Source: Dendrobates tinctorius (taxonomy: Eukaryota). From it: a stretch of 64,000 nt of DNA. Below are positions 29,415 to 64,000 of the stretch, one piece after another. Every line of letters begins with the position of its first letter. Position 1 is the stretch's first letter. The stretch is taken from the NCBI RefSeq assembly GCF_039654945.1, contig NW_027361692.1, positions 2,728,001 through 2,792,000 on the forward strand. Direction: 5' to 3'. The translations under genes were made by a program, and so were the position numbers. The notes below the pieces were generated by a model. The model was not told the DNA's origin. It worked only from the letters and a program-made list of their open reading frames with translations, and searched no databases.

Positions 29415-29933
29415 TGTCATGCGGGGCTTAGTTCAACTAAGGCTGAAATACCCGGGGCCCCTGTGATGTCCCTTTAACTAGGGGAAACCCTGTCTGACCC
29501 TCAACCCAGGGTTTTTGCTGATGATGACCCTCCACCCTCCACCCAGTGAGGAGACACACCACCAAAGCCCCCACACAAATAATGACAGACAGGGAGAACT
29601 TAAACTGCACTGCGCCGCACACACAGAGGAATATACAGTAATGTGAACAGGGCACAACTAAACACAAATATGGGAAGGAGAAAGGATAACAACGGCTCAT
29701 ACGCCACCAGATACGAATCTCTCTCTCTTCAACACCTCCACTCCAGACAGGAACCATAGGCCAGCATGACTATTTAAAGACCATGGGCGTGACTAACCAT
29801 CCAACCTGGTCTCCAGCAAGATTAACCCCCGAGAGCCTGAAGATCAAGCCGGCGCCACTGAGGCTATAGTGGATGGAGGTGGAACTACCTCTGCCTGCCG
29901 GACGCTGTGGTGTGAACAGCGTCCGACATGACA
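29415..29933 (-). repeat. 3' LTR (519 bp; two internal deletions of ~50 and ~37 bp relative to the 5' LTR)
   Basis: Direct repeat of 34130-34735 with about 7 substitutions by eye. Confidence 0.92.
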
Positions 29934-32900
29934 TTACCCCGTCTTCTACGAGGGACCCCCGGACCCTCAAGACTCATAGGACCCGGCTTGTCCGGATGAC
30001 GATGGTGAAAGGAACTGACCAGCCGATTCGCATGTATGTCTGAGGCTGGAACCCAAGACCTCTCCTCCGGACCATACCCCCGCCAGTGCACCAAATACTG
30101 AAGAGTATGGCGTACTACTTGAGAGTCCACTACCTTGGCAACCTCAAACTCTAAATCGCCCTCCACCATGACTGGAGGTGGCATCGGCGTCGTGTCCACC
30201 AAGCCTACCACCTTTTTCATTAAAGCCCTGTGAAACACCTTGTGTATCTTGTACACCGCAGGAAGTTCCAACCGATAAGCCACTGGGTTAATGATGGCAG
30301 AAATCCTAAAAGGCCCAATAAACCTTGGACCCAGTTTTAAAGATGGAATTTTGAGTTTTATGTTCTTCGTAGCTAACCACACCCATTCACCCACACACAG
30401 GTCCGGACCTGGCACGCGTCTACTGTCAGCCACCCGTTTGTACCTAGCACTCATGCTCAACAAGCGCTGTTTCACCCTCCTCCAGACCGATGACAATTGG
30501 GCTCCTAGCTGATCCTCCTCCGGGACACCCCCCGAGTCAACCTGACGTAAGGTACAAAACTGAGGATGTTGACCGTACACACAAAAGAATGGAGACTCTC
30601 CCGATGACTCTTGGCGGTGATTATTTAATGCGAATTCGGCCAGAGGAAGGAAAGTAGACCACTCCTCCTGGTTGTCGGACACAAAGCATCGTAAATACTG
30701 TTCTAGATTTTGGTTCATGCGCTCAGTTTGTCCATTAGACTGTGGATGAAACGCCGATGAATGTGACAACTTGATCTCCAAACGTGAGCAAAACGCTTTC
30801 CAAAACCTCGCCACAAATTGTGTACCCCTATCAGATACTATGTCCGACGGAACTCCGTGGAGTCTGACCACCTCCTTCACAAATACCTGGACCAACGTCT
30901 TTGCATTGAGCAATGAAGACAATGCCACAAAATGCGCCATCTTTGAAAAACGGTCAACCACCACCAGGATGACCGTGTTCCCCGCCGAGGCTGGCAAGTC
31001 AGTGATGAAATCCACGGAGATTTCTGTCCATGGCCTATTGGGTACCCCCAGAGGCTGTAGCGTGCCAGCAGGACAGGTTCGGGGTGACTTAGCCCTAGCG
31101 CACGTGATGCAAGCTGCCACGTATGAGACCACGTCCTGCCGAATTTTGGGCCACCAGAAACGACGCGATACCAGCTCTAAGGTGCCCTTCACCCCTGGAT
31201 GACCAGCCAGTACCGAGTCGTGGTGTTGCTTCAACACCTTAAGCCGAAGATGCAGGGGTACAAATGATTTGTTGGCGGGAAGTCCTGGCAGTACCTCCTC
31301 TTGGGCCTCAGCAATCTCCGCCTCTACCTCCGTCGTGAGAGCCGAGACCACTACCCCTTCCTGGAGGATGGGTACAGGCTCTTCCGAGGTTCTCCCCCCG
31401 GAAAACACCTAGACAAAGCATCCGCCTTGGTGTTTTTAGCCCCGGGACGGTAAGTCACAAGAAAATTGAAACGAGTAAAAAACAATGCCCAGCGGGCCTG
31501 CCTAGGAGACAGACGCTTGGCCGACTCCAGACATAGCAGATTCTTATGGTCGGTGATGACTGTGACCTGGTGAGCCGCCCCCTCCAAGAAGTGTCGCAAT
31601 TCCTCAAAAGCCAATTTGATGGCCAACAACTCCCTGTTGCCGATATCATAATTCCGTTCGGCCGGCGACAGCTTCTTGGAGAAGTAGGCGCATGGATGCA
31701 TCTCGCTCAAGGACGAGCCTTGAGACAGTACTGCCCCCACTCCCACCTCCGACGCATCAACCTCCACCACAAAAGGTTTAGACACGTCTGGTTGCACCAG
31801 AATGGGGGCTGAAGCAAAACTATTCTTCAGATGCTCAAATGGACGTATAGCCACTTCAGGCCAGCTCGCCAGATCGGCACCTTTTTTGTCATGTCCGTGA
31901 GCGGTTTGGCGATAGTCGAAAAGTGTTTTATAAATTTCCTATAATAATTTGCAAACCCAAGGAACCGCTGGAGTGCTTTCAGACTCTCCGGCCTCTCCCA
32001 TTGCAGCACCGCTTGCACCTTAGTGGTGTCCATTTTAAACCCGGCTGCGGACACAATATATCCCAAAAAGGGCAACTCCTGGACAAAAAATAAACATTTT
32101 TCCAGCTTAGTATAGAGCTGGTTCTCCCGGAGCAACTGTAATACCTGCCTGACATGCTCCAAATGAGTGTCCCGATCGCTAGAATAAATGAGGATATCAT
32201 CCAGGTATACAATCACAAATCTCCCCAGGACATGAGCAAATACATCATTAATAAAATGTTGGAAAACGGCAGGCGCGGTGGTCAACCCAAACGGCATAAC
32301 CAGATTCTCAAAATGACCCTCAGGAGTGTTAAACGCCGTCTTCCACTCATCCCCCTGAAGGACCCTTATGAGGTTATACGCCCCCCCTGAGGTCCAGCTT
32401 GGAAAACCATTTCGCCCCCGCTACCTGGTTGAACAAATCCGGGATCAACGGCATTGGGTAGGGATCACGGATAGTAATCTGGTTTAACTCTCGGAAATCC
32501 AGACACGGGCGTAACCCCCCATCTTTCTTCTTAATGAAGAAAAACCCCGCGGCTACAGGCGAGGACGAAGGCCGGATGTGTCCTTTGCTCAGACTCTCCA
32601 TGATGTAGTCTTTCAGAGCTTGTCTCTCAGGACCAGAAATATTAAACATCCTGGCCTTAGGTAATTTGGCCCCGTGTTTAACCTAATCGCACAGTCATAG
32701 GCTCTATGTGGAGGCAGTTCTGAGCAACCCTTCTCAGAGAAAACATCCGCGAAATCCTGCAAAGCCTCCGGCAGGCTGGGCGTCATGGTGGACACACATG
32801 TGGCCAAGGAATTGTCTTGGCAGAAACCACTCCATTGTACTATGTCCTGAGTTTTCCAATCAATTACCGGGTTGTGCCTGGGCAACCATGGAAAACCCAG

Positions 32901-33236
32901 GACCATTTGTGCTGGGAGATTACGGAGGACCCTACATGTAACCGACTCAGAATGTAGGACCCCAATGTAGAGTTTCACCTCTGCCACAAACTCCATAATC
33001 TCCCCTTGAGGGAGGGGAACAGCATTAATGGTAACCACCTGTATGGAGTGAGGAAGTCTTTCGATCTTAAACCCGGCGGTGTGTGCAAACTCCTCATCTA
33101 TGAGATTGGTGGCGGAACCGCTATCCACAAACACTGATATTGGTAGCTCTCTGCCCGCGATAATAACCTTGGCAGGGAGCATACATTGAGATACCATCAT
33201 GGAGGATATGCATACGCTCAGTTGGGTCTCCTCCAT
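29885..33236 (-). pseudogene. pol: Gypsy pol (PR-RT-RH-IN-chromodomain), several frameshifts
   Basis: FVDSGS protease; YLDD RT; VEVDAS RNase H; HHCC plus VDFIT/SDRG/E integrase; C-terminal chromodomain FEVAKVVD..YLVHWRGYGPEERSW. Confidence 0.92.
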
Positions 33237-33247
33237 ACCCTCTGAGC

Positions 33248-34099
33248 TTAACAGTTTTCCGCCGGTGTGACCCTCTTAGGTAGTACTGGGCAAACGTTAA
33301 CATAATGACCTCTTTTACCACAGTAGAAACATGCTCCGGGCTTCCGGAATCCCGTAGCGCGACGCTTAACCTGTGCCACGCCAGCAATCTGCATAGGTTC
33401 TGGGGACTCATCTACTTCAACCACACTTGAACCTCTGCTTTCCCCCAGAGGTAGCGTCTCCTGTGCCCCCTGATGAAAACGGCGATCAATACGTATCACC
33501 AAACTCATGGCAGACTCCAACGATGCCGGAGTCTCATACATCAGGAGGGCTTGTTTAACCTTCCCTGATACCCCATGAATAAACTGGCTCCGCAGTGCTG
33601 GGTCATTCCACTGTGTGTCTATGGCCCAACGGCGAAATTCCGAACAATAGTCCTCTGCCAAGCGCTCCCCCTGGCGGAGGGTGCGGATTTTAGATTCCGC
33701 TAGAGCCAGTCGGTCAGGATCATCGAAAATGAGCCCGAGGGCAGAAAAAACATTATCGACAGAATGAAATGTAGCAGAGTCAGCTGGTAAGGAAAATGCC
33801 CATGCTTGGGGGTCACCACTCAGTAATGACAACACCAGCCCTACCCGCTGGGCCTCATTACCTGAGGAGATAGGGCGCATGCGGAAGTATAACTTGCAGG
33901 CCTCCTGAAATACGACAAATTTGCTGCGATCCCCTGAAAATCGTTCTGGCAGCGGAAACTTCGGCTCTGCACCGATACCTGCAGATGCCGTTTGCACCTT
34001 CGCTACTACCAGGCCCTGCTGCTGAACTGCCCCTTTCAACTCGGAGACTTGTAAGGACAGCGCCGCCAACTGGCGGGTTATGGAATCTAATGGATCCAT
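33248..34099 (-). CDS. gag: Gypsy Gag (283 aa) with CCHC zinc knuckle
   Basis: LPERFSGDR, LRQG, CFYCGKRGHYVNVC; ends at GGAAAAC, a possible -1 slippery site, just before the stop. Confidence 0.88.
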   Translation of the reverse strand: MDPLDSITRQLAALSLQVSELKGAVQQQGLVVAKVQTASAGIGAEPKFPLPERFSGDRSKFVVFQEACKLYFRMRPISSGNEAQRVGLVLSLLSGDPQAWAFSLPADSATFHSVDNVFSALGLIFDDPDRLALAESKIRTLRQGERLAEDYCSEFRRWAIDTQWNDPALRSQFIHGVSGKVKQALLMYETPASLESAMSLVIRIDRRFHQGAQETLPLGESRGSSVVEVDESPEPMQIAGVAQVKRRATGFRKPGACFYCGKRGHYVNVCPVLPKRVTPAENC

Positions 34100-34129
34100 G
34101 GACTCCTGAAAAATGTGGGCCGATTATAA

Positions 34130-35621: not shown

Positions 35622-37830
35622 CTAAATCATCCCAGTCAGATGTCTGTCCAGCCTCTGTTTGAAGACTTCCATTGAAGGAGAACTCACCACTTCTCGTGGC
35701 AGCCTGTTCCACTCATTGATCACTCTAACTGTCAAAAAGTTTTTTCTAATATCTAATCTGTGTCTCCTCCCATTCAGTTTCATCCCATTGCTTCTAGTCT
35801 TTCCTTGTGCAAATGAGAATAAAGTTGATCCTTCTACAATGTGACAGCCCTTTAGATATTTGTAGACAGCTATTAAGTCTCCTCTCAGTCTTCTCTTTTG
35901 CAAACTAAACATTCCCAAATCCTGCAACCTTTCCTCATAAGACAGGGTATCCAGACCGGTCACCATTCTGGTCGCTCTTTTCTGAACTTGCTCCAGTTTG
36001 TTGATGTCTTTTTTAAAATGTGGTGCCCAAAACTGGACACAATATTCCAGATGAGGTCTGACCAAAGAGGAGTAGAGGGAAATAATGACTTCACGTGATC
36101 TAGACTGTATGCTTCTGTTAATACATCCTAGAATTGCATTTGCCTTTTTTGCTGCTGCATCACACTGTTGACTCATATTCAGTCTGTGATCTATTAGTAT
36201 ACCCAAGTCTTTTTCACATGTGCTGTCACTTAGCCCTATTCCTCCCATTCTATATTTGCTTTTTTCATTTTTATTGCCCAGATGTAGTACTTTGCATTTC
36301 TCCCTGTTAAAAACCATTCTGTTAGTTGCTGCCCACTTCTCCAGTTTATTTAAATCTTTTTGAATCCTCTCTCTCTCTTCTCTAGTATTAGCTATCCCTC
36401 CTAGCTTTGTGTCATCAGCAAATTTAATCAGTTTACCCTCAATTCCTTCATCTAAATCGTTGATAAAGATGTTGAACAATACAGGGCCCAGGACAGAGCC
36501 TGGACCCTGGAGACTTGAATTCATTTAGGTTAGCTAAGTGTTTCCTCACTATCTTTCTGTTTATAGATATCCTGGATTCTTCTATTCCCTTAATAGGACA
36601 GTGAATAACAGTTGATGTTACATTTCCTTTCTGAGAGAAAACAGATGCAAAATAGGAATTTAAAAGTTCAGTCTTCTCAACATCCTGTCTTACCATTTCA
36701 TTATTTTCATCCTGTAAAAATCCTATAGCATCTTTGACTTTTCTTTTACTTTTGACATATCCCCAAAATCCTTTATTATTTCTTTTGACATCTCTTGCAA
36801 GCCTCAATTCATTTTCAACTTTAGCTAATCTGATTTGTGCCCTGCAGGTTCTGCAGACAGCATTATATTCTTCTTTAGATATGCCTCCCTCTTTCCATTT
36901 TATAAACATTTTTTTCTTCCTTTTTAGCATGTGCTTAAGTTCTGTGTTCATCCATCCTGGTTTCCTTAAATGCTTCCTATTCTTCCCTCTTTTCGGAATT
37001 GTTAACAACTGTGCTTTGAGAATTTCATTTTTCAAGATTTCCCATCCTTCCTGGACATTTTTGTCTTTAAGGATATCCAGCCATTGGATCCCTCCAATTC
37101 TCTTTCTGAATCCCTTAATATCTGCATTTCTGAAATCTAACCTTGACGTCTGAGTCTTCACAGGTCTTCCGCCTCTAGTTATCCAAAATTCTAAAATAGC
37201 ATGGTCGCTACATCCTAGGGTCCCAGCCACTTTTACCTCCTCAACCATTTCCTCCCTGTTTATAAGGATTAGATCCAAGGTAGCAGTTCCCCTTGTTTTC
37301 TCCCTTACCTTTTGGAAGATAAAGTTGTCAGCAAGAGAGGATAAGAATTTCCTTAACCTGTTAGTTTTGCCTGAGAGAGATTCCCAGCAAATGTCTGAAT
37401 AGTTGAAATCTCCCATGACAACTATGTCATATTTTTTGGAGAACTTGGCCATTTAATGCATAAAGAGTTCATCCATATCCTCAGCTTGCACAGGCGGCCT
37501 GTAGTAAATGCCTACAATGGTGTCCTTTCCATTGTTCTGTCCTTGTATTCTTACCCAAACAGTTTCCACAGAACTCCCAGTCTCTGAAGCTTCAATCTCT
37601 GTGCAGATATACACGTTTCTAACATACAATGCGACACCCCCTCCTCGTTTATCAAGTCTGTTTCTTGCAAATAAGTTGTATCCTTCTAGTCTTGTATTCC
37701 AATCATGTGTGTTGTCCCACCAAGTTTCAGTGATTCCAATGACATCATATTTCTTTTCCTGTGTTAGTAGTTCCAATTCTCCTTGTTTGTTGCCCATGCT
37801 TTGTGCATTAGTATAGAAACAATTTAGTTT
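35622..37830 (-). pseudogene. CR1 ORF2 (APE endonuclease + partial RT)
   Basis: IGITETW, RGGGVALY, GIYYRPP, MGDFN, SDH; RT KFADD. In-frame stop at 37453. A junction near 36505 joins KSPG to GSVLGP, removing the N-terminal RT motifs. Confidence 0.88.
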
Positions 37831-37976
37831 GTGATTGGTTTCTCTTTCTCCAATATTTTTATTAATTAGATTCTTTCGTCTTTTTTCTTCCTTTCCAATT
37901 CTAATAGCAGAGTTCTCAATAGCATTTGTCAGGTGTATGGCTTTTTCTGGTCTTTTGCTTCCCTTCCCATGTTGCT

Positions 37977-38934
37977 CTAGTTTAAAGCTCTTCTTACAAG
38001 TGTAGCAAGGCGACTTCCAAATACATGCTTTCCAGTCTTCGTAAGGTGCACCCCATCTCTAGCAAGTAGTCCATCGTATAAGTAGTTCACTCCGTGATCC
38101 AGAAATCCAAATCGTTGCTGACGGCACCATCGACGTAGCCAGTTGTTCACTTGCAGAATCTTATTCCACCTCCTTGTTCCATGGCCATCCACTGGGAGGA
38201 TGGAAGAGAAGACCACCTGCGCTCCCAGTTCTTTCACTTTCTTGCCTAAGTCTTCAAAGTCTCTGCAGATTGTTTCCAGGTCGTTTCTTGCGGTGTCATT
38301 TGTCCCCACATGTAGTAGCAGGAATGGGTAGTCATCTGTAGGTCTGAAGAGTCCTGATATCCTGTCAGACACATCTTTAATTTTTGCACCTGGAAGACAG
38401 CACATTTCTCTTGAAGTTATATCTGGTCTGCAGATAGCGGCCTCTGTTCCTCTCAACAGGGAATCCCCCATGACCACCACTGTCCGTTTCTTCTTCACAA
38501 CATTTTTCTTTCTCCATCCAGGAGGACTCTGAGGGCGTACAAGGTTGCTGTTTGTGGGCAAAGTCTTATCCTGATGTATTTCTTCATCGTTGCGTGAGAG
38601 CCTGGTACTGGTTCCTGAGAAGTATGGGTGCTGACTGCCTCCTGATCCTCCTGCTTCTCTGGGTCACATGTCTCCATTCCTCTGTTTCTTCAGGTGCACT
38701 TCGAATTTCTTCTCTTTCTGTAACATGAAGAGATAATTCTGCTCTGTCCAAGAACTCTTCACCTTCCTTAATGATCTTCAATGTAGCTAACCTCTCTTCG
38801 AGATTTTGCAACTTTTCCTCCAACAGGGACACAAGCTTGCATTTGTGGCATGTGAAGTTTGGCTTTTCCACTGGTAAATCTGTAAACATGTAGCAAGAAA
38901 TGCAGCTCACCAAATGGCTCCTGGCCTCTTCCAT
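37977..38934 (-). pseudogene. CR1 ORF1 (zinc finger/coiled coil + SGNH esterase), frameshifted
   Basis: CISC...CHKC followed by a leucine-rich helix; VVMGDS, HVGTND, DGVHL (GDSL/SGNH blocks). Confidence 0.85.
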
Positions 38935-46393: not shown

Positions 46394-49300
46394 CTATGTG
46401 TCATCAGGGGAAGGTCGGACAAAATCCTTGGAAACCCATGCATGGTTCATTTTAATGAAGGTTAGATCATCCACATTTTGGGTTGACAGACGGGTCCTTT
46501 TTTCTGTCAGGATTGATCCAGCTGCACTGAAGACTCTTTCCGATAGCACACTTGCAGCTGGGCAAGCGAGCTCCTGTAAGGCATATTGTGCCAGGTCAGG
46601 CCAGGTGTCCAGTTTAGCGGCCCAATAGTCAAAGGGGAATGACCTGTGCGGGAGAACATCGATATTGGAGGAAACGTTGTTTGTAACCATAGTTGACAAC
46701 TGCTATCTCCTGTCACTTTCCATCGATGCATTATTACCAGTTGTGTGAGCGGTACTTGAAAAATCAGTCCACAACATTGTCATGAAACCCCTGTCTCCAA
46801 CGCCACTTCTGCTGTGTGCACCACGAACACCTCTGCCAAGCTGCCCCCGGCCCGTACGGCTCGTGTTAGAACCATCACCACTGCTGTGTGCTGGGAATGC
46901 CTCAACCAACCGGTTTACCAGAGTTGCTTGTTTATTAGCCAATATTAGGTCAAGGTTCTCGTGTGGCATGATGTTTTGTAATTTGCCTTTATAGCGTGGA
47001 TCCAGGATGCTGGCCAACCAGCAGTCGTCATCGCTCATCATTTTGGCAATGCGGGGTCCCTTTTTAGGATCTGCAAGGCATAACCTGACATGTGGGCCAA
47101 TGTTCCTGGTGTCAATGATGCACTGCGAGTGCTGGTTGAAGGAGCACTTTCTGGCAAATCCACATCCCTCCAGTCACGCACAAACCCTGTACCAGACCTT
47201 GCCACGCCAACATTTTCACTTGCCCCACGAGATGCATCCTCCTCCCCTAAGTAATCATCCCCATCATCATCCTCCTCCTCCTCTTCTTCCTCCACCTCGT
47301 CCAGGAGAGGTCCCTGAGCAGACAATGGCTGAATGTCATCAGGGATTCCCTCCACCTCTTCCTCCTCGTCAACATTGGCTGCAGACGCCTGCTCCTTAAG
47401 GTGCGTCAAAGTTTGCATGAGCAGACGCATAAGTGGGATGCTCATGCTTAGGATGACGTCGTCTGCGCTTACCAGCCGTGTGCATTCCTCAAAACACTGA
47501 AGGACTTTACAGAGGTCTTTCAGCTTCGACCACTGCACACCTGTCAACTCCATGTCTGCTCTCAAAGTGCCTGGCCGTGTATCCTCCCACAAATGCATTA
47601 TGGCCTGCCTCTGTTTGCACAGCCGCTTAACCATGTGCAGGGTGGAGTTCCACCTTGTTGCAATGTCGATAATGAGGCGGTGGTTGGGAAGGTGGAGCAA
47701 TCGCTGCAGCTTCTGCATACGAATGGAGTGTACAGGCGACCGGCGGATGTGCGCGCACAGTCTTCGCACCTTCTGGAGCAGGGCTGTTAACTCCGGATAA
47801 TTGCTGAGGAAGCACTGCACCACCAGGTTCAAGGTGTGAGCCAAGCAAGGTATGTGGCTGAGTTTTGAAAGGGCTATGGCTGCCACAAAATTACGGCCGT
47901 TATCACTAACTACCTTGCCTGCCCCAAGATGTATACTGCCCAGCCATGACTCAGTTTGTCGCTGAAAGTACTCGGCAAGCACCTTCGCGGTATGTCTGTC
48001 GCCCAAACACATCTTCTGCAACACAGCCTGCTGACGTTTTCCACTAGCTGCTCGATAGGGGGACACCTCGTGTGCAACAGTGGCAGCTGCAGATGGAGTG
48101 CTCGTACGACTGCGCTCTGTGGACGAGCTTTCGCTTCTGGAGGAGGAGGAGGAGGGTTGAACGCCTACAGCCAACTGTTTCCTATACCGTGGGCTAGGCA
48201 GCACTGTCCCACCACCGCTGTCCCCTGTGGACCCTACATCCACCGCATTAACCCAGTGCGCAGTGATGGACACGAAACAGCCCTTGCCATGCCAACTGGA
48301 CCATGCATCTGTTGTGAGGTGCACCTTTCCACTCACTGACTGCTTGAGTGCATGGACAATGCGGTCTTTCACATGATGGTGGAGGGCTGGGATGGCTTTG
48401 CGAGAGAAGAAGTGGCGACTGGGTAGGTCATAGCGTGGTACTGCATAGGCCATGAGTTCGCGGAAAGCTGCGCTTTCCACCAACCGATAGTGCATCATCT
48501 CTAATGAGATTAGTTTGGCAATGTGGGCGTTCAAACCCAGTGTACGCGGATGAGAAACTGAGTACTTTCTTGACCTACTCATAATCTCTGGGAGGGTGAG
48601 CTGGACTTGAGAGCTGCATATGGTGGAACTAGCGGTGGACAGGGCGGACTGAGAGAGGGTTGATGATGGTGATGGAGTTGGTGTTCTTTCTGATGGCCTA
48701 GATTCAGTCTTTCGTTGATATAACAGTGGGATTCCCTGACTGCTTTGGCCTTTCAACGACACCTCAACATTTGCTGCTGTGCTAACCAGTGGGCTTACAG
48801 TGGGGGGAAACAATGTAGTGTTGCTGACTACCTTCTTTGTGATCAGTTGCACATGTGGTACTTGAGGTTTGGTGTTGTGTCCACGCTTGCAAGTGCATGC
48901 TGGTTAAATGTCTAAGCATGCAACTGGTATTCAAATTTTTCCGATTTTTCCCTCGGCTAAAGGTCTTTGCGCACTTCTTACAGATAACCTTGGCCTGATC
49001 ATGAGGATTTTGTTCAAAAAAGTGCCACACTGCACTTTTCCCACTTTGGAAGACATTTTGCGGCCTAGCACGCTGTGCTATTTTGACCGTCTGGACAAGC
49101 TGTCCACCAACTCTTTTGATTTTTGGAACCTGTCTTTGGAGTGCTCCGGGCCTGCCAGATAACAGCTGTTGTGATGTCGATGTCTGCTGTGGATGCTCCT
49201 CCTCCTCATCTGAGGTATTGGAAGCAGCACCCTCTTCCCCCAATGGATGCCAATCTGGGTCAACAACTGGGTCATCCATCACCTCCTCTTCAATGTCATG

Positions 49301-49936
49301 TGCACCTTCCTCTGTGTCACCGTGTATGGTGGTATAGTATGCGGGAAGGGGCACCTGAGTCTCATCAGGGTCAGAATCTGACTCATTGCACTGCGAGGAC
49401 AATGTAGTGCTCTGACTGAATGTACCAGCAGAATCATCTGTCAGTGGCTGTGCATCAGTGCACTCCATGTCAGATTCATCTTGGCCTGGGTAATTCACCA
49501 TTTCACTTGATAACCCAGGCATGGTATGTGAAAACAGCTCCATGGAGTAATCAGTTGTATGGCCTGTGTCATCCTTCAATCTTGGTTGGGGTGAAGGACA
49601 CAAGGAAAGGTGTGGTTCATGAACATGACCCTCCAATGACGACTCAGTGCTTTTATTTTTTACAACTTCAGAAGAGGAGGCGATAGAGCTGGAGGCTGAG
49701 TCAGCAATGTAAGCCAAAACTGTTTCCTGATGCTCTGGCTTTAAAAGCGGTTTGCCAACTTCTAGAAAACTAAGCCTTCGAGGCCTTGTGGAGCCAGACG
49801 ATGACGCAGGCTCAACACCTCCTGCATTCGTTCCTATTTTGCTTTTGCCACTACCATCAGTTCCACCACCAACACCATCATTACCAGCTGGCAACCCCCG
49901 CCCAATTACACGGCCTCTTCCACCAGCCTTCCTCAT
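46394..49936 (-). pseudogene. hAT transposase (ZBED-like: BED finger, DDE core, hATC dimerization domain), 2 frameshifts + 1 stop
   Basis: SAVWHFF...CKKC...MLRHLTSMH (BED); LTTDAWS, VSDNG, CLAH, TRWNST; YW..LA..LACPAASVLSERVFS. Spread over ORFs 48782-49936, 47038-48852, 46703-47041 and 46394-46699. Confidence 0.92.
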
Positions 49937-50002
49937 TTTTGGTAAAAATGTACACAAAATCCCACAAACTATATAGTAATGTAAAACAAGGTACAAGGTG
50001 TA

Positions 50003-51655
50003 TATAGGACAGGGGAGACGTAGAATTTCTGAACACACTTGTGGACACTGTTGGATTGTGTGAGGCCCAGTTAATATCACACCGCTATGTCACAGGCTCA
50101 ATGTCGCAGGTGTGAAAAATGTCACTATAGGACAGGGGAGATGTAGAATTTCTGAACACACTTGTGGACACTGTTGTGTGAGGCCCAGTTAATATCACAC
50201 CGCTATGTCACAGGCTCAATGTCGCAGGTGTGAAAAATGTCACTATAGGACAGGGGAGATTTAGAATTTCTGAACACACTTGTGGACACTGTTGGATTGT
50301 GTGAGGCCCAGTTAATATCACACCGCTATGTCACAGGCTCAATGTTGCAGGTGTGAAAAATGTCACTATAGGACAGGGGAGATGTAGAATTTCTGAACAC
50401 ACTTGTGGACACTGTTGTGTGAGGCCCAGTTAATACCACACCGCTATGTCACAGGCTCAATGTCACAGGTGTGAAAAATGTCACTATAGGACAGGGGAGA
50501 TGTAGAATTTCTGAACACACTTGTGGACACTGTTGGATTGTGTGAGGCCCAGTTAATATCACACCGCTATGTCACAGGCTCAATGTCGTAGGTGTGAAAA
50601 ATGTCACTATAGGACAGGGGAGATGTAGAATTTCTGAACACACTTGTGGACACTGTTGGATTGTGTGAGGCCCAGTTAATATCACACCGCTATGTCACAG
50701 GCTCAATGTCGCAGGTGTGAAAAATGTCACTATAGGACAGGGGAGATGTAGAATTTCTGAACACACTTGTGGACACTGTTGTGTGAAGCCCAGTTAATAT
50801 CACACTGCTATGTCACAGGCTCAATGTCGCAGGTGTGAAAAATGTCACTATAGGACAGGGGAGATGTAGAATTTCTGAACACACTTGTGGACACTGTTGT
50901 GTGAGGCCCAGTTAATATCACACCGCTATGTCACAGGCTCAATGTCGTAGGTGTGAAAAATGTCACTATAGGACAGGGGAGATGTAGAATTTCTGAACAC
51001 ACTTGTGGACACTGTTGTGTGAGGCCCAGTTAATATCACACCGCTATGTCACAGGCTCAATGTCGCAGGTGTGAAAAATGTCACTATAGGACAGGGGAGA
51101 TGTAGAATTTCTGAACACACTTGTGGACACTGTTGTGTGAGGCCCAGTTAATATCACACCGCTATGTCACAGGCTCAATGTCGCAGGTGTGAAAAATGTC
51201 ACTATAGGACAGGGGAGATGTAGAATTTCTGAACACACTTGTGGACACTGTTGTGTGAGGCCCAGTTAATATCACACCGCTATGTCACAGGCTCAATGTC
51301 GTAGGTGTGAAAAATGTCACTATAGGTCAGGGGAGATGTAGAATTTCTGAACACACTTGTGGACACTGTTGGATTGTGTGAGGCCCAGTTAATATCACAC
51401 CGCTATGTCACAGGCTCAATGTTGCAGGTGTGAAAAATGACACTATAGGACAGGGGAGATTTAGAATTTCTGAACACACTTGTGGACACTGTTGTGTGAG
51501 GCCCAGTTAATATCACACCGCTATGTCACAGGCTCAATGTCGCAGGTGTGAAAAATGTCACTATAGGACAGGGGAGATGTAGAATTTCTGAACACACTTG
51601 TGGACACTGTTGGATTGTGTGAGGCCCAGTTAATATCACACCGCTATGTCACAGG
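50003..51655. repeat. 118/123-bp tandem array (~14 units)
   Basis: Unit AGGCCCAGTTAATATCACACC...; two lengths differing by a 5-bp indel (50063, 50181, 50304...). Confidence 0.95.
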
Positions 51656-60383: not shown

Positions 60384-60980
60384 TGTAACAATTGTACTCA
60401 CTCAGCTGCGTAGGAGGAAACAGGAGGCACATTCTCTTCACCGTCCATGTGAGTTTATTTGCTCCATAAACCATCAAATCCACAACAAATCCACAACAAA
60501 AGAGGTTAACAACAGTCTTTACATCAGGCAGACACTGCATCAATGTCCATAGGATTCTCCTTCTCTGAACACAGACCACTCTGTAGTGTCCCACCTGGAC
60601 ACATGGAAATCTGTGCACACTGCCAGACTCCCAAACACTAACTGCCCAGTGCTAAACACACCTCAATTACATAACTGGTAACCACACCCACAGGTGAGGT
60701 ATGGATCACATGGGCTGTCACATGGTTATGACCTCACTGGAGGTCCTGAAACTTACAACCACACAGGCTTCATTAGGTATTCAGACACACACCCCTTGGG
60801 TGGGTATGTAGGTGACTGGACCCACCCATATCTCCAAGTCACCTGGAAGCCTTCCAATGTATAGCAAAAACCCTCAGCAGTAGATCTGCTGAGCAAAACA
60901 TGCCCAGGATTCCATCACAGGGCCACCCACTTCTGCGATACACACTGCCCATCAATGACATGACCAGTCATCATGCCACA
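60384..60980 (-). repeat. Putative 3' LTR (597 bp) of an FXR1-carrying retroelement
   Basis: The minus strand begins TGTGGC immediately after the purine tract AGAAGGGGGAAA (60994-60983), contains AATAAA (~60458) and ends TTACA. Confidence 0.6.
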
Positions 60981-61294
60981 TATTTCCCCCTTCTGTTTAA
61001 ACCTGTGGGGTTGAACACTTGTACTAAACCGAGGGCATCGAGACAGGGCACCCATGTCACCTTGCCCTACAAGTCAAAAAGACCATCTCAGTCTGTTTTG
61101 GACGTCATTCAGCATCACATCTTTGTTAGGCCACCCCCACCTCCAGCGGTCAGTATGTCGGCCTTGGGCTTAAGCCTTGGAGTCACCATCTGCCTGTGTC
61201 ACCAGACCCTTTTTAGTCAACCTACTTTCCAAATGTGCCTTTTCACATGACCTTTCTTTCCATGGCCGCTTCCCACGGTTGTTGTGGTCATGAG

Positions 61295-62623
61295 TAGGGA
61301 TGAGCGAGTATACTCATTAGGATTCGGTACTCACTGAGTAATGCAGTACTCGCGGGACTTGAATCCTGGCTAGTAAATTTCACTACTCTCCTCTCAATAT
61401 TTGGCACAGCCTGCATAGTCCCCGCACAGCCCAGCACAGTCCCACACAGCCCAGCACAGTCCCCGCACAGCCTGGCACAGTCCTGCACAGCCTGGCACAG
61501 TCCCGCACAGCCCGGCACAGTCCCGCACAGCCCGGCACAGTCCTGCACAGCCCAGCACAGTCCCGCACAGCGCCGCACAGTCCCCACACAGTCTCCGCAC
61601 AGCCCGGCACAGTCCCGCACAGCCGGCACAGTCCCCGCACAGCCCTGCACAGTCCCGCACAGTTCCTGCACAGTCCCTGCACATCCCGGCACAGTCCCGC
61701 ACAGCTGGCTCAGTCCCCGCACAGCCCAGTACAGTCCCGCACAGACCGGCACAGAGCCCACACAGTCCCTGCACAGCCCAGCACAGTCCCCACACAGTCC
61801 AGCACAGTCCCGCACAGCCCAGCACAGTCCCCACACAGCCCGGCACAGTCCTGCACAGCCTGGCACAGTCCCGCACAGCCCGGCACAGTCCCGCACAGCC
61901 CGTCACAGTCCCTGCACAGCCCAGCACAGTCTCCGCACAGTCCGGCACAGTCCCGCACAGCCGGCACAGTCCCCGCACAGCCCTGCACAGTCCCGCACAG
62001 TTCCTGCACAGTCCCTGCACATCCCGGCACAGTCCTGCACAGCTGGCTCAGTCCCCGCACAGCCCAGTACAGTCCCGCACAGCCCGGCACAGAGCCCACA
62101 CAGTCCCCGTACAGCCCAGCACAGTCCCCGCACAGCTCAGCATAGTCCCACACAGCCCAGCACAGTCCACCTACAGCCCAACACAGTCCCACACAGCCCA
62201 GCACAGTCCCCGCACAGTCCCGCACAGGCCGGCACAGTCCCCGCACAGCCCAGCACAGTCCCGCACAGCCCGGCACAGTCCACGCACAGCCCAGCACAGT
62301 CCTGCACAGCCCGGCACAGTCCCTGAACAGTCCTCGCACAGCCCAGCAAAGTCCCGCACAACCCGGCACAGTCCCCGCAAAGCCTAGCACAGTTCCGCAC
62401 AGCCCGGCACAGTCCTCACACAGTCCCGACACAGCCCAGCACAGTCCCGCACAGCCCAGCACAGTCCCGCACAGGCCAGCACAGCTCCGCACACACATAG
62501 CCCAATAATCGCATTTCCCATAGACTTACATTGGACTCGCTACTCGTAACGAGTACCCAAGTATTTGGAGCTACTCATAATGAGTACAGCGAGTCTGAGT
62601 ATTTCACTACTCGCTCATCCCTA
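61295..62623. mobile_element. Non-autonomous hAT element filled with a minisatellite
   Basis: TIR TAGGGATGAGCGAGTA / TACTCGCTCATCCCTA; 8-bp TSD GTCATGAG. Confidence 0.9.
61404..62490. repeat. 10/11-bp GC-rich minisatellite (GCACAGTCCC / GCACAGCCCG)
   Basis: About 100 degenerate units; explains the spurious Cys/Gly/Ala-rich ORFs. Confidence 0.95.
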
Positions 62624-62639
62624 GTCATGAGTCCACCAT

Positions 62640-63879
62640 CCATTCGAGCCTACTGGCTAATCTGAGTCTGACCCTTTGTCACTACGTCCACTACCTGGTC
62701 TCTTGCTTAAGCTACTGAGCCCTGAGTTAACAGAGGAATCACCACCTTTAACCCCCTTTGCTTCAGACCACGTACTGCCAGTCTCAAGAGAAACCCCTCA
62801 TCTCTCCATGTCCTGGGCTGGAAGCAGTCACCATCTTCTTTCCAACTCCTGTAGCTGTATATTAATCTGCATTTTTTCCCAGATCAGCTGCTCTACCTCT
62901 TGTAGGTACGTCAGCCGATATTCCAGGAGCATGCGGAGGTTCCTAATGTTTTCCACTGAGCCAACAACAACAAAAGGAACCATGTCATCTTCCCCAGCTA
63001 TCTGGACTTAAGTCACCAGTGGAATCTTCACTCTCACCACACCAGATCTATTCACACGCTCTTGCATCACCTTTCCAAGTCTTCCAATGACTTTCCCCAC
63101 CAGATTTCTGGATACCGGAATGATGTCTTCCACAAAGCGATTTTGAGCTTCCCTTGGAAGCTCCAGATGTCGAGTGGATTCCTTATTCCTTAACATGATC
63201 ATCTGTTTCATGTGGAGGCATTGTAGTTGCATATCCTTCAGGACAGCCACCCGCTTCACTGTGACTTCACTAGTCGACAGTACGACCTACTGCTGAGTCT
63301 CAGGCGCCCAGTGCACACTACATGCTTTGACCACCTTTTTAAAGGCCTCATGCACATCCTTAGTGGCACGCGGTTCTCGCATGTCTTCTCGCATGCACTT
63401 GAAACCAGAAGTCTTACCTTCTTGAACATACTGTTGGACCACCTCGTCCTGAGAGTCAGCACAGTTTTCCAAGATATCGATCTCCCTTGTGTGGCCGTCT
63501 GCATGGCAATTTCCCTGCTGCATTCTTTCCCTGGGGAGGCCCCTTCTTTGGTCAGCCTCTCCAGCTCACTCTCCTTCATTGCGATCAGATCGGGACAGTG
63601 CAACAGTTTGATTTCCCAGTCATCCGTGGATTTCTGGAGCTGGGCATTAGTCTCCTCTATTTTGAGCTCTCGGAGAACTTTATCTCTCTCCTCTGCCAGG
63701 CAGTGATGCTCATCCTCTCTCTGGAGAAGCTCCAGCTCATGCTTCTCTTGGGCCTCTCTGAGCACCTCCATATCTTTCATTATGGCCTTATTCATAGTTT
63801 GACACTCTGACAGGTGACCTCTTAACTCAGAGACTTCCTTCTCCAGCTCATCCACTCTGTGCTCAGCTGCTTGTCTTAA
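62640..63879 (-). pseudogene. FXR1-like: Intronless FXR1/FMR1-family-derived ORF (KH0, KH2, NES, part of C-core) fused to an N-terminal coiled coil; in-frame stops and one frameshift
   Basis: One frame reads FKC..EDMRE...HEAFKKVVKAC..PETQQ*VVLSTSEVTVKRVAVLKDM..RNKESTRHLE..FVEDIIPVSRNLVGKVIGRLGKVMQE.V..SGVVRVKI...MVPFVVVG..ENIRNLRMLLEYRLTYLQEVEQL..EKMQINIQLQEL, colinear with FXR1 as I recall it. Confidence 0.85.
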
Positions 63880-64000
63880 GCCCCCGTCACACACGGCGAT
63901 CTCACTAGCGAGATCGCTGCTGAGTCACAAGTTTTGTGATGCAACAGCAATCTCACCAGCGAGATCGCTGTGTGTGACACCTATCAGCGACCGGCCCCCC
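63880..64000. mobile_element. Start of a Harbinger-type MITE (truncated by window end)
   Basis: GCCCCCGTCACACAC...AGCGAGATCGCT motifs similar to 22323-22717. Confidence 0.6.

Follow-up and report, generated by a model that had tools for sequence, protein, structure and literature searches.

A KH1-less FXR1 segment in a non-autonomous LTR retrotransposon (SCAN/Gmr1 type) of poison frogs

Background

The domain order protease, integrase, reverse transcriptase (RT), RNase H (PR-IN-RT-RH) is a hallmark of Gmr1. In oncogene-transducing defective retroviruses, a spliced host mRNA replaces pol and is fused in frame, its domains are trimmed, and propagation depends on a helper. SCAN-bearing Gmr1-like Ty3/Gypsy elements are described from frogs in parts of PMC4131045, and parts of PMC13534243 treat Drosophila TART and telomeric elements with fragments of nxf2, piwi or aub. 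While gene capture by retroelements is already known, an FXR1 module that is trimmed and under constraint, carried by a vertebrate LTR element that is amplifying, appears to be new: a literature search yielded no description of an FXR1-carrying LTR retrotransposon of frogs (supplements, repeat libraries and subscription journals, which lay outside its scope, could name it), and the main texts of two papers on frog transposons (PMC11152451, PMC4131045) make no mention of FXR or fragile terms.

The stretch of DNA analysed here, called the window in the following, comprises 64,000 nucleotides of a Dendrobates tinctorius contig (NW_027361692.1); positions refer to the window.

Results

Organization of the copy in the window

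An LTR retrotransposon of poison frogs, ~5 kb long, non-autonomous and of the SCAN/Gmr1 type, is present on the minus strand of the window as a dead copy. Its 5' part lies outside the window, where a protease-like remnant, the primer-binding site and the 5' LTR are found beyond a later insertion of about 660 nt overall, of which positions 63885-64000 fall within the window. On the inner side of this insertion follow an element-specific coiled coil and an acidic linker (63404-63884) and then the FXR1-like run, which begins near the end of Agenet 2 and encodes KH0, CC1, KH2 and CC2 (63403-62843) without KH1. The part with KH0 (Pfam KH_9, E 5.6e-5) and the CC1 helix (63161-63403) ends with RHLE (63172-63161) and is followed by eight residues, i.e., the 24 nt of the KH1-deletion junction (63137-63160; the first three host exon 8 codons plus exon 9 from codon 7), and by the only canonical KH domain, KH2 (62903-63136). 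The latter starts with FVED (63136-63125), and its GxxG loop reads GRLG (63085-63074; GKNG in the host), just as first annotated. A further helix (EVEQL...QLQEL, 62843-62899), which we take to be NES-like, concludes the run; its position is that of CC2 as given in parts of PMC10635158.

The copy carries one frameshift near 63530, within the coiled-coil region, and three stop codons, situated in KH0-CC1 (63289-63287), in KH2 (63010-63008) and behind the CC2 helix (62830-62828); an in-frame loss of 9 nt is found near 63386. The initial annotation had the module kept in frame from KH0 through KH2 to the NES, which holds for the junction, whereas KH2 is cut and the NES/CC2 stretch sits downstream of a stop codon. 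The 3' part of the element is split by another later insertion (61296-62623), element homology ending at 61295 and restarting at 62624. This insertion has short inverted ends and a GC-rich internal minisatellite core and is probably a non-autonomous DNA transposon. The polypurine tract (60981-60997) immediately precedes the 3' LTR (60384-60980), at the same place as in young copies, and pieces of 87-197 nt of this LTR are 88-94% identical to the 5' LTR beyond the window end.

Several other mobile elements are present in the window, named by eye except for the protease and the BED finger, both identified by Pfam: a separate Ty3/Gypsy element with pieces of gag, protease, RT, RNase H, integrase and a chromodomain-like ORF (29885-34123, minus strand), a CR1-like LINE (35622-38663, minus), a hAT-like transposase with a BED finger (46703-50089, minus), and Tc1-like transposases at 9388-9963 (plus) and 13548-14639 (minus).

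The LTR element and its candidate helper

In a search of the genome with the element protein P0276, 92 of 9,042 candidates were scored; all 92 are KH1-less copies of 95-100% identity, 90 of them without a stop codon in the match. Young copies are 95-100% identical to a protein named Dendrobates tinctorius, and at least 92 young KH1-less copies compare with five KH1-retaining ones. In all 15 young copies fetched, the two LTRs of ~570 bp are 99.5-100% identical, and the sense ORF, 1,033-1,206 codons long, extends in most cases into the 3' LTR. It is the only long sense ORF inside the element. Those with resolved ends (13 of 15) measure about 5.0-5.2 kb (~5.07 kb); they end in TG..CA and carry a purine tract as well as a TGG primer site. 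Target duplications of 4 bp are clear in 6 of the 15, most of the others lying in AT or other microsatellite flanks.

Concerning the coding content, no Pfam family for RT or integrase was found in the ORF scanned (L102). The N-terminal part of the ORF exhibits one or two degenerate retropepsin-like domains (recognized as a look-alike with a score of 0.95; E 0.08-0.16 in Pfam), the catalytic motif of which, read by eye, is altered in the young subfamily. With this domain as query, no homologue outside the element was retrieved, and a search of the PDB by sequence gave no match. For the coiled coil, the corresponding search yielded only element proteins, with no match in four KH1-retaining copies or in the candidate helper described below.

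Many open frames of 1,433 codons were detected in the genome by a search for SCAN. Eight of these loci were fetched: five are complete elements of ~5.13 kb with LTRs 96-99.8% identical, one is partial, and two belong to another family. The ORF (1433 aa) comprises SCAN, a zfCCHC zinc knuckle, protease, integrase, RT and RNase H; the SCAN gag and the PR-IN-RT-RH order of autonomous Gmr1-like elements are thus present in this related family and absent from the FXR1 element, which is a Gmr1-like derivative and not an autonomous member. Both elements are 79-83% identical over 83-92 nt at the U5/primer-site and purine-tract stretches, and their protease regions are 31-43% identical (E 1e-13 to 1e-20 in 6 of the 8 SCAN loci fetched). 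Because the 3' end of the element ORF matches the end of the SCAN element's pol, the FXR1 segment seems to have taken the place of the integrase-RT-RNase H part, i.e., of most of pol. The young autonomous SCAN family is the likely helper that would mobilise the FXR1 element in trans.

The primer site of the FXR1 element is presumably of the tRNA-Ala type; a pattern search for a complementary tRNA gene found none. Two variants of this site follow the 5' LTR in the young copies (L093-L107), one of them that of helper copy L131 and the other altered, and other helper copies carry a third variant. Beside one element copy, outside its LTR, an envelope-like ORF (identified by eye; L037 1-1092, plus strand) of an apparently unrelated endogenous retrovirus is situated.

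Extent and origin of the KH1 deletion

A DNA search of the 6.36 Gb genome gave 50 matches from the 40 scored of 6,801 first-look candidates, and KH1 is missing from all 30 loci returned, the window copy included. The deletion is family-wide and not private to the window copy, a point on which the first reading of the locus had depended. Absence of KH1 itself, as initially annotated, is borne out by Pfam, which recognizes KH0 and then one KH domain, and by the alignment of a sibling copy to PDB 2QND, where KH0 and the KH2 part of FMRP are matched and nothing corresponds to the KH1 core. When aligned with two KH1-retaining element proteins and a further 53 proteins of the FXR family, the KH1-less form exhibits a clean gap of 60 residues.

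The spacer between LE (of HLE) and FVED comprises 24 nt in the window copy, 30 nt in 27 of the 29 other loci and 32 nt in one, the stretch being missing in the last. The initial annotation emphasized that the eight residues leading into KH2 equal the host spacing into KH1; because 27 of 29 other copies carry 30 nt, this spacing is a 6-base loss private to the window copy. The ten-residue spacer is also found in proteins named R. imitator, R. variabilis and D. tinctorius, and in the PDB alignment it falls onto the last helix of FMRP KH1.

In host FXR1, exon 7 ends with HLE, exon 8 (171 nt) extends from CTK to YGE, and exon 9 starts with SAEAVKKARSF. The family deletion of 60 codons (180 nt) is in frame and has its ends inside exons 8 and 9, without coinciding with exon borders: the element retains the first three codons of exon 8 and picks up at codon 7 of exon 9, within the last helix of KH1. 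In a young copy, the three codons after HLE share 5 of 9 bases with the host exon 8 start, 6 of 9 with a KH1-retaining copy and 2 of 9 with exon 9 codons 4-6. The reading CTK of the young copy P0274/L081 was disregarded as evidence on the ancestral state, since it is present in only 1 of 30 copies.

About 3 bases are shared in register at the junction, and KH1 was probably deleted by a short-homology jump during reverse transcription. A derivation of the KH1-less form from a host isoform skipping exon 8, or from a template switch between the similar KH1 and KH2 starts as initially proposed, is highly improbable. Host exon 8 is in frame and spans most of the deletion, and the spacing of the window copy is that between HLE and KH1 in the host; but 13 residues would remain after skipping and 8 after a start-to-start switch, against the 10 of the family, and the codons after HLE resemble the start of exon 8 more than exon 9 codons 4-6. 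In addition, KH1-retaining relatives occur on the same element chassis, and host FXR1 in four RNA runs, over a stretch that excluded exon 7, exhibits only the normal exon 8-9 joint. The deletion also matches no known exon-skipping host isoform.

KH1-retaining relatives, donor and history

With the KH1 stretch as query, three host paralogues were found, together with four intron-less, broken element copies that retain KH1 (41-50% identity); a DNA query raised the latter to five. Among the 150 matches listed of the 246 obtained with a KH1-containing query, none crosses KH1. Host FXR1 differs very little from a protein named Ranitomeya imitator. The third host paralogue (L041, G000:C2:836946-840116) is probably FXR2, and its divergence from salamander FXR2 seems to exceed that between the FXR1 and FMR1 exons and their respective counterparts. 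KH0-KH1-KH2 without a Tudor domain is found in two proteins named Anomaloglossus baeobatrachus.

The KH1-retaining copies start at the same point as the others, within exon 5 and close to where Agenet 2 ends; two also share with the KH1-less copies the protease-like remnant upstream. The tandem Agenet/Tudor domains are indeed absent from the element module, as initially described, with homology starting near the Agenet 2 end and a coiled coil upstream; they were likely never captured, rather than removed, since the KH1-retaining copies have the same start. A search of the genome with the Tudor_FRX1 family gave no match, its controls being silent as well. KH0 and KH2 are present, KH1 is absent, and the module tail has no RGG. 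FXR1 was captured as a spliced, intron-less segment from the middle of exon 5 onward. The GxxG loop of KH1 is destroyed in all six KH1-retaining sequences aligned, with xALR, xSLR, xARK or xAFR in place of GTHG. The precise domain surgery of the first description was overstated, its 5' edge being a mid-exon capture boundary and the KH1 loop having been lost already in these six.

Tree and alignment place the descent of the module with FXR1, the donor named at the outset, rather than with FXR2 or FMR1. In the tree, calculated on 193 columns with 22 of the 33 aligned rows kept, the KH1-less copies form a clade (100/100), as do all element copies (99/98), and the element is sister to frog FXR1 (100/98). 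The KH1-retaining copies are weakly paraphyletic (84/62), and their single clade is not rejected by the AU test (p 0.30). A single capture of spliced FXR1 appears well supported, with the caveat that long branches may inflate this support, and would have preceded the split between Anomaloglossus and dendrobatids. We favour the order in which the GxxG of KH1 was lost first and the domain deleted second. Copy L058 (5660-9660; G000:C308) comprises a KH1-less copy nested in a KH1-retaining one, each with its own purine tract, which suggests that the KH1-less lineage was active later.

Several database entries named 'fxr1-like' or 'fragile X homolog' (P0121, P0122, P0125, P0126, P0267, P0276) group with or match the element; they are probably transposon copies and not host paralogues, which would explain such entries in these frogs.

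Selection on the module

Comparisons of a young copy with KH1-less copies by the Nei-Gojobori method gave omega (dN/dS) values of 0.27-0.52 (15 comparisons). Under a codon model with kappa, omega for the FXR1 module is 0.33-0.57 in six comparisons between a young copy and other subfamilies (p 1e-6 to 0.05), and 0.41-0.63 when CpG codons are excluded (five of the six still with p<0.05); the omega comparisons share one reference copy and are not independent, and values of 0.3-0.6 stand for moderate constraint only. Between subfamilies, selection seems to have preserved the module, as had been supposed from the window copy. Four pairs of dead copies, including that of the window, yielded 0.85-1.5, and the in-frame tail yielded 0.48-1.25, never significantly different from 1 in eight comparisons. 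With 0.41-0.51, the first, degenerate protease-like domain is similarly constrained, i.e., the FXR1 part is not uniquely selected.

Among 30 young copies, variants affect 5 synonymous and 15 non-synonymous codons, as expected after insertion. Between subfamilies (the L102 ORF versus L001-L029), synonymous distance is about 0.2 in the coil and about 0.75 in the FXR1 part; because these distances differ so greatly, recombination or module swapping between subfamilies is suggested. The dS between the element piece and host FXR1 is about 1.9.

Predicted structure and transcripts

AlphaFold2 predicts for P0276 a helix of 134 residues, a disordered linker, KH0, a continuous junction helix (286-328), KH2 and a long CC2 helix (pLDDT mostly >90 in folded parts, pTM 0.42), with an rmsd of 1.1-1.3 A between predicted KH0 and FMRP. 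KH0 and KH2 are thus predicted to fold cleanly and normally, joined by one continuous helix, and a structure model of this kind had been asked for at the outset.

According to parts of PMC10635158, human FXR1 dimerises via CC1 (around N202) and CC2 (around V361), the Tudor domains are dispensable on overexpression, the KH1 mutation G266E abolishes mRNA binding, and N202S disrupts the FXR1 network. Because both coiled coils reported there as necessary for dimerisation are retained, the element module could plausibly oligomerise with host FXR proteins. It is doubtful that KH2 could bind RNA by itself, because human FXR1 needs an intact KH1 to bind mRNA (PMC10635158). The asparagine of CC1 equivalent to N202 is replaced in the young subfamily (LGKKEA versus SRNEEA), and an estimate by eye puts KH2 and CC2 at only some 50-60% identity with the host. 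Long ORFs from three named species preserve the glycines of the KH2 GxxG loop and the CC2 helix.

Spliced host FXR1 contigs identify four sequencing runs as RNA. Three of these contain contigs nearly identical to the young element (e.g., 965 nt with 5 differences); in the fourth, from another organism, the element contigs are more distant. These transcripts may reflect passive read-through, as intronic repeats are covered as well.

Discussion

Our confidence in the anatomy and history of the element is high, and far greater than that in its function. In our reading, the non-autonomous SCAN/Gmr1-type element carries in its single ORF an intron-less FXR1 segment with a shared KH1 deletion; KH1 would first have lost its GxxG loop and then been deleted by a short-homology jump in reverse transcription. 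An autonomous SCAN element sharing its LTR ends, primer site and purine tract would mobilise it in trans. The protein of intact copies would join the RNA granules of host FXR1, FXR2 and FMR1 through CC1 and CC2, and the module would favour the element's own RNA via its one KH loop. The benefit would fall for the most part to the encoding copy itself, in cis: were the product to act purely in trans, copies without the cargo would profit as well, and selection could hardly maintain it. Whether the protein does enter the FXR granules of the host and give preference to its own RNA is, in our judgement, evenly balanced. A broader reading is possible but rather doubtful: that the lineage gave up its own enzymes in exchange for an RNA-granule scaffold of the host, reduced to a dimerising core and one KH domain, as a selfish FXR1 mimic entering or subverting germ-line RNP granules, and that the loss of KH1 and gain of the coiled coil allowed it to expand to thousands of copies in poison frogs, whereas the forms with KH1 became extinct.

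Alternatively, the module might act in trans as a decoy that heterodimerises with host FXR, poisons its RNA network and weakens transposon silencing for all elements. CC1 and CC2 are kept while KH1, Tudor and RGG are gone, KH1 or CC mutants break the human FXR1 network (parts of PMC10635158), and in the fly dFmr1 is needed, together with Aubergine and Piwi, for transposon silencing (parts of PMC5454977). Such a shared good would, however, be hard for selection to maintain in a non-autonomous element, an argument also made for TART in parts of PMC13534243. A literature search found no role of vertebrate FXR1 in LTR-element silencing, and the host would be expected to suffer from poisoned FXR1, although many copies are still open; we regard a decoy as unlikely. 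Counter-silencing at the RNA level, as in TART, with piRNAs from the captured piece knocking down host FXR1, is very improbable. Although fragments of piRNA-pathway genes have been captured repeatedly, the TART-type fragments are 140-235 bp long and 76-95% identical to the host gene (both points from parts of PMC13534243), whereas the FXR1 piece extends over ~600 bp or more in frame at the dS to the host given above; its best 28-mer against host FXR1 has 4 mismatches, and only five host 28-mers reach that.

The cargo could also be a passenger, its frame open only for translation to the end or for RNA stability, or its constraint a relic, with the KH1 loss a neutral shortening toward helper length. 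The ORF does run into the 3' LTR, element and helper are nearly equal in length (5.07 versus 5.13 kb), the variation among the 30 young copies looks neutral, and omega in the window copy's own subfamily is near 1. But maintenance of the frame alone cannot lower omega, which is near 1 in the same-frame tail and 0.33-0.57 in the module. The glycines of the KH2 loop and the CC2 helix are kept in three named species, and every model predicts neutral variation once copies have inserted; on balance a passenger role seems improbable. Should the proposed entry into host granules with preference for the element's own RNA apply, FXR granules would be linked, in a testable way, to the success of LTR elements in the very large genomes of poison frogs. 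The natural deletion series of a fragile-X-family protein, from a KH1 with a dead loop to no KH1, points to a minimal interacting core, and it is unusual, for vertebrates, that a captured protein module stays in frame and constrained, is shared across frog genera and is carried by a non-autonomous element that has amplified recently.

Comparison with known systems

The FXR1 element is similar to the SCAN-bearing Gmr1-like Ty3/Gypsy elements of frogs (parts of PMC4131045), compared here through the autonomous SCAN element of this genome, in its TG..CA LTRs, primer site, purine tract, 4-bp duplication and homologous protease region. It differs from them in lacking the SCAN capsid, integrase, RT and RNase H, in its one or two protease-like domains being degenerate, and in the replacement of pol by a coiled coil and the FXR1 module. 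With host FXR1 it shares the order KH0, CC1, KH2, CC2, whereas introns, the Agenet pair, KH1 and the RGG box are missing, and it is multi-copy, mobile and on much longer branches.

Concerning the Drosophila elements with nxf2, piwi or aub fragments (parts of PMC13534243), both cases combine a retroelement with a piece of a host gene from a silencing-linked family, and in both the families with the capture reach higher copy numbers. The fragments there are short and thought to act via piRNAs, whereas a long in-frame module under amino-acid constraint is found here, in a vertebrate LTR element.

To the oncogene-transducing retroviruses, finally, the FXR1 element can be likened in the spliced mRNA in place of pol, the in-frame fusion, the trimming and the presumed helper. 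Despite this similarity, it has no envelope and is a parasite of the germ line, and its cargo is an RNA-granule scaffold that has persisted across frog genera.
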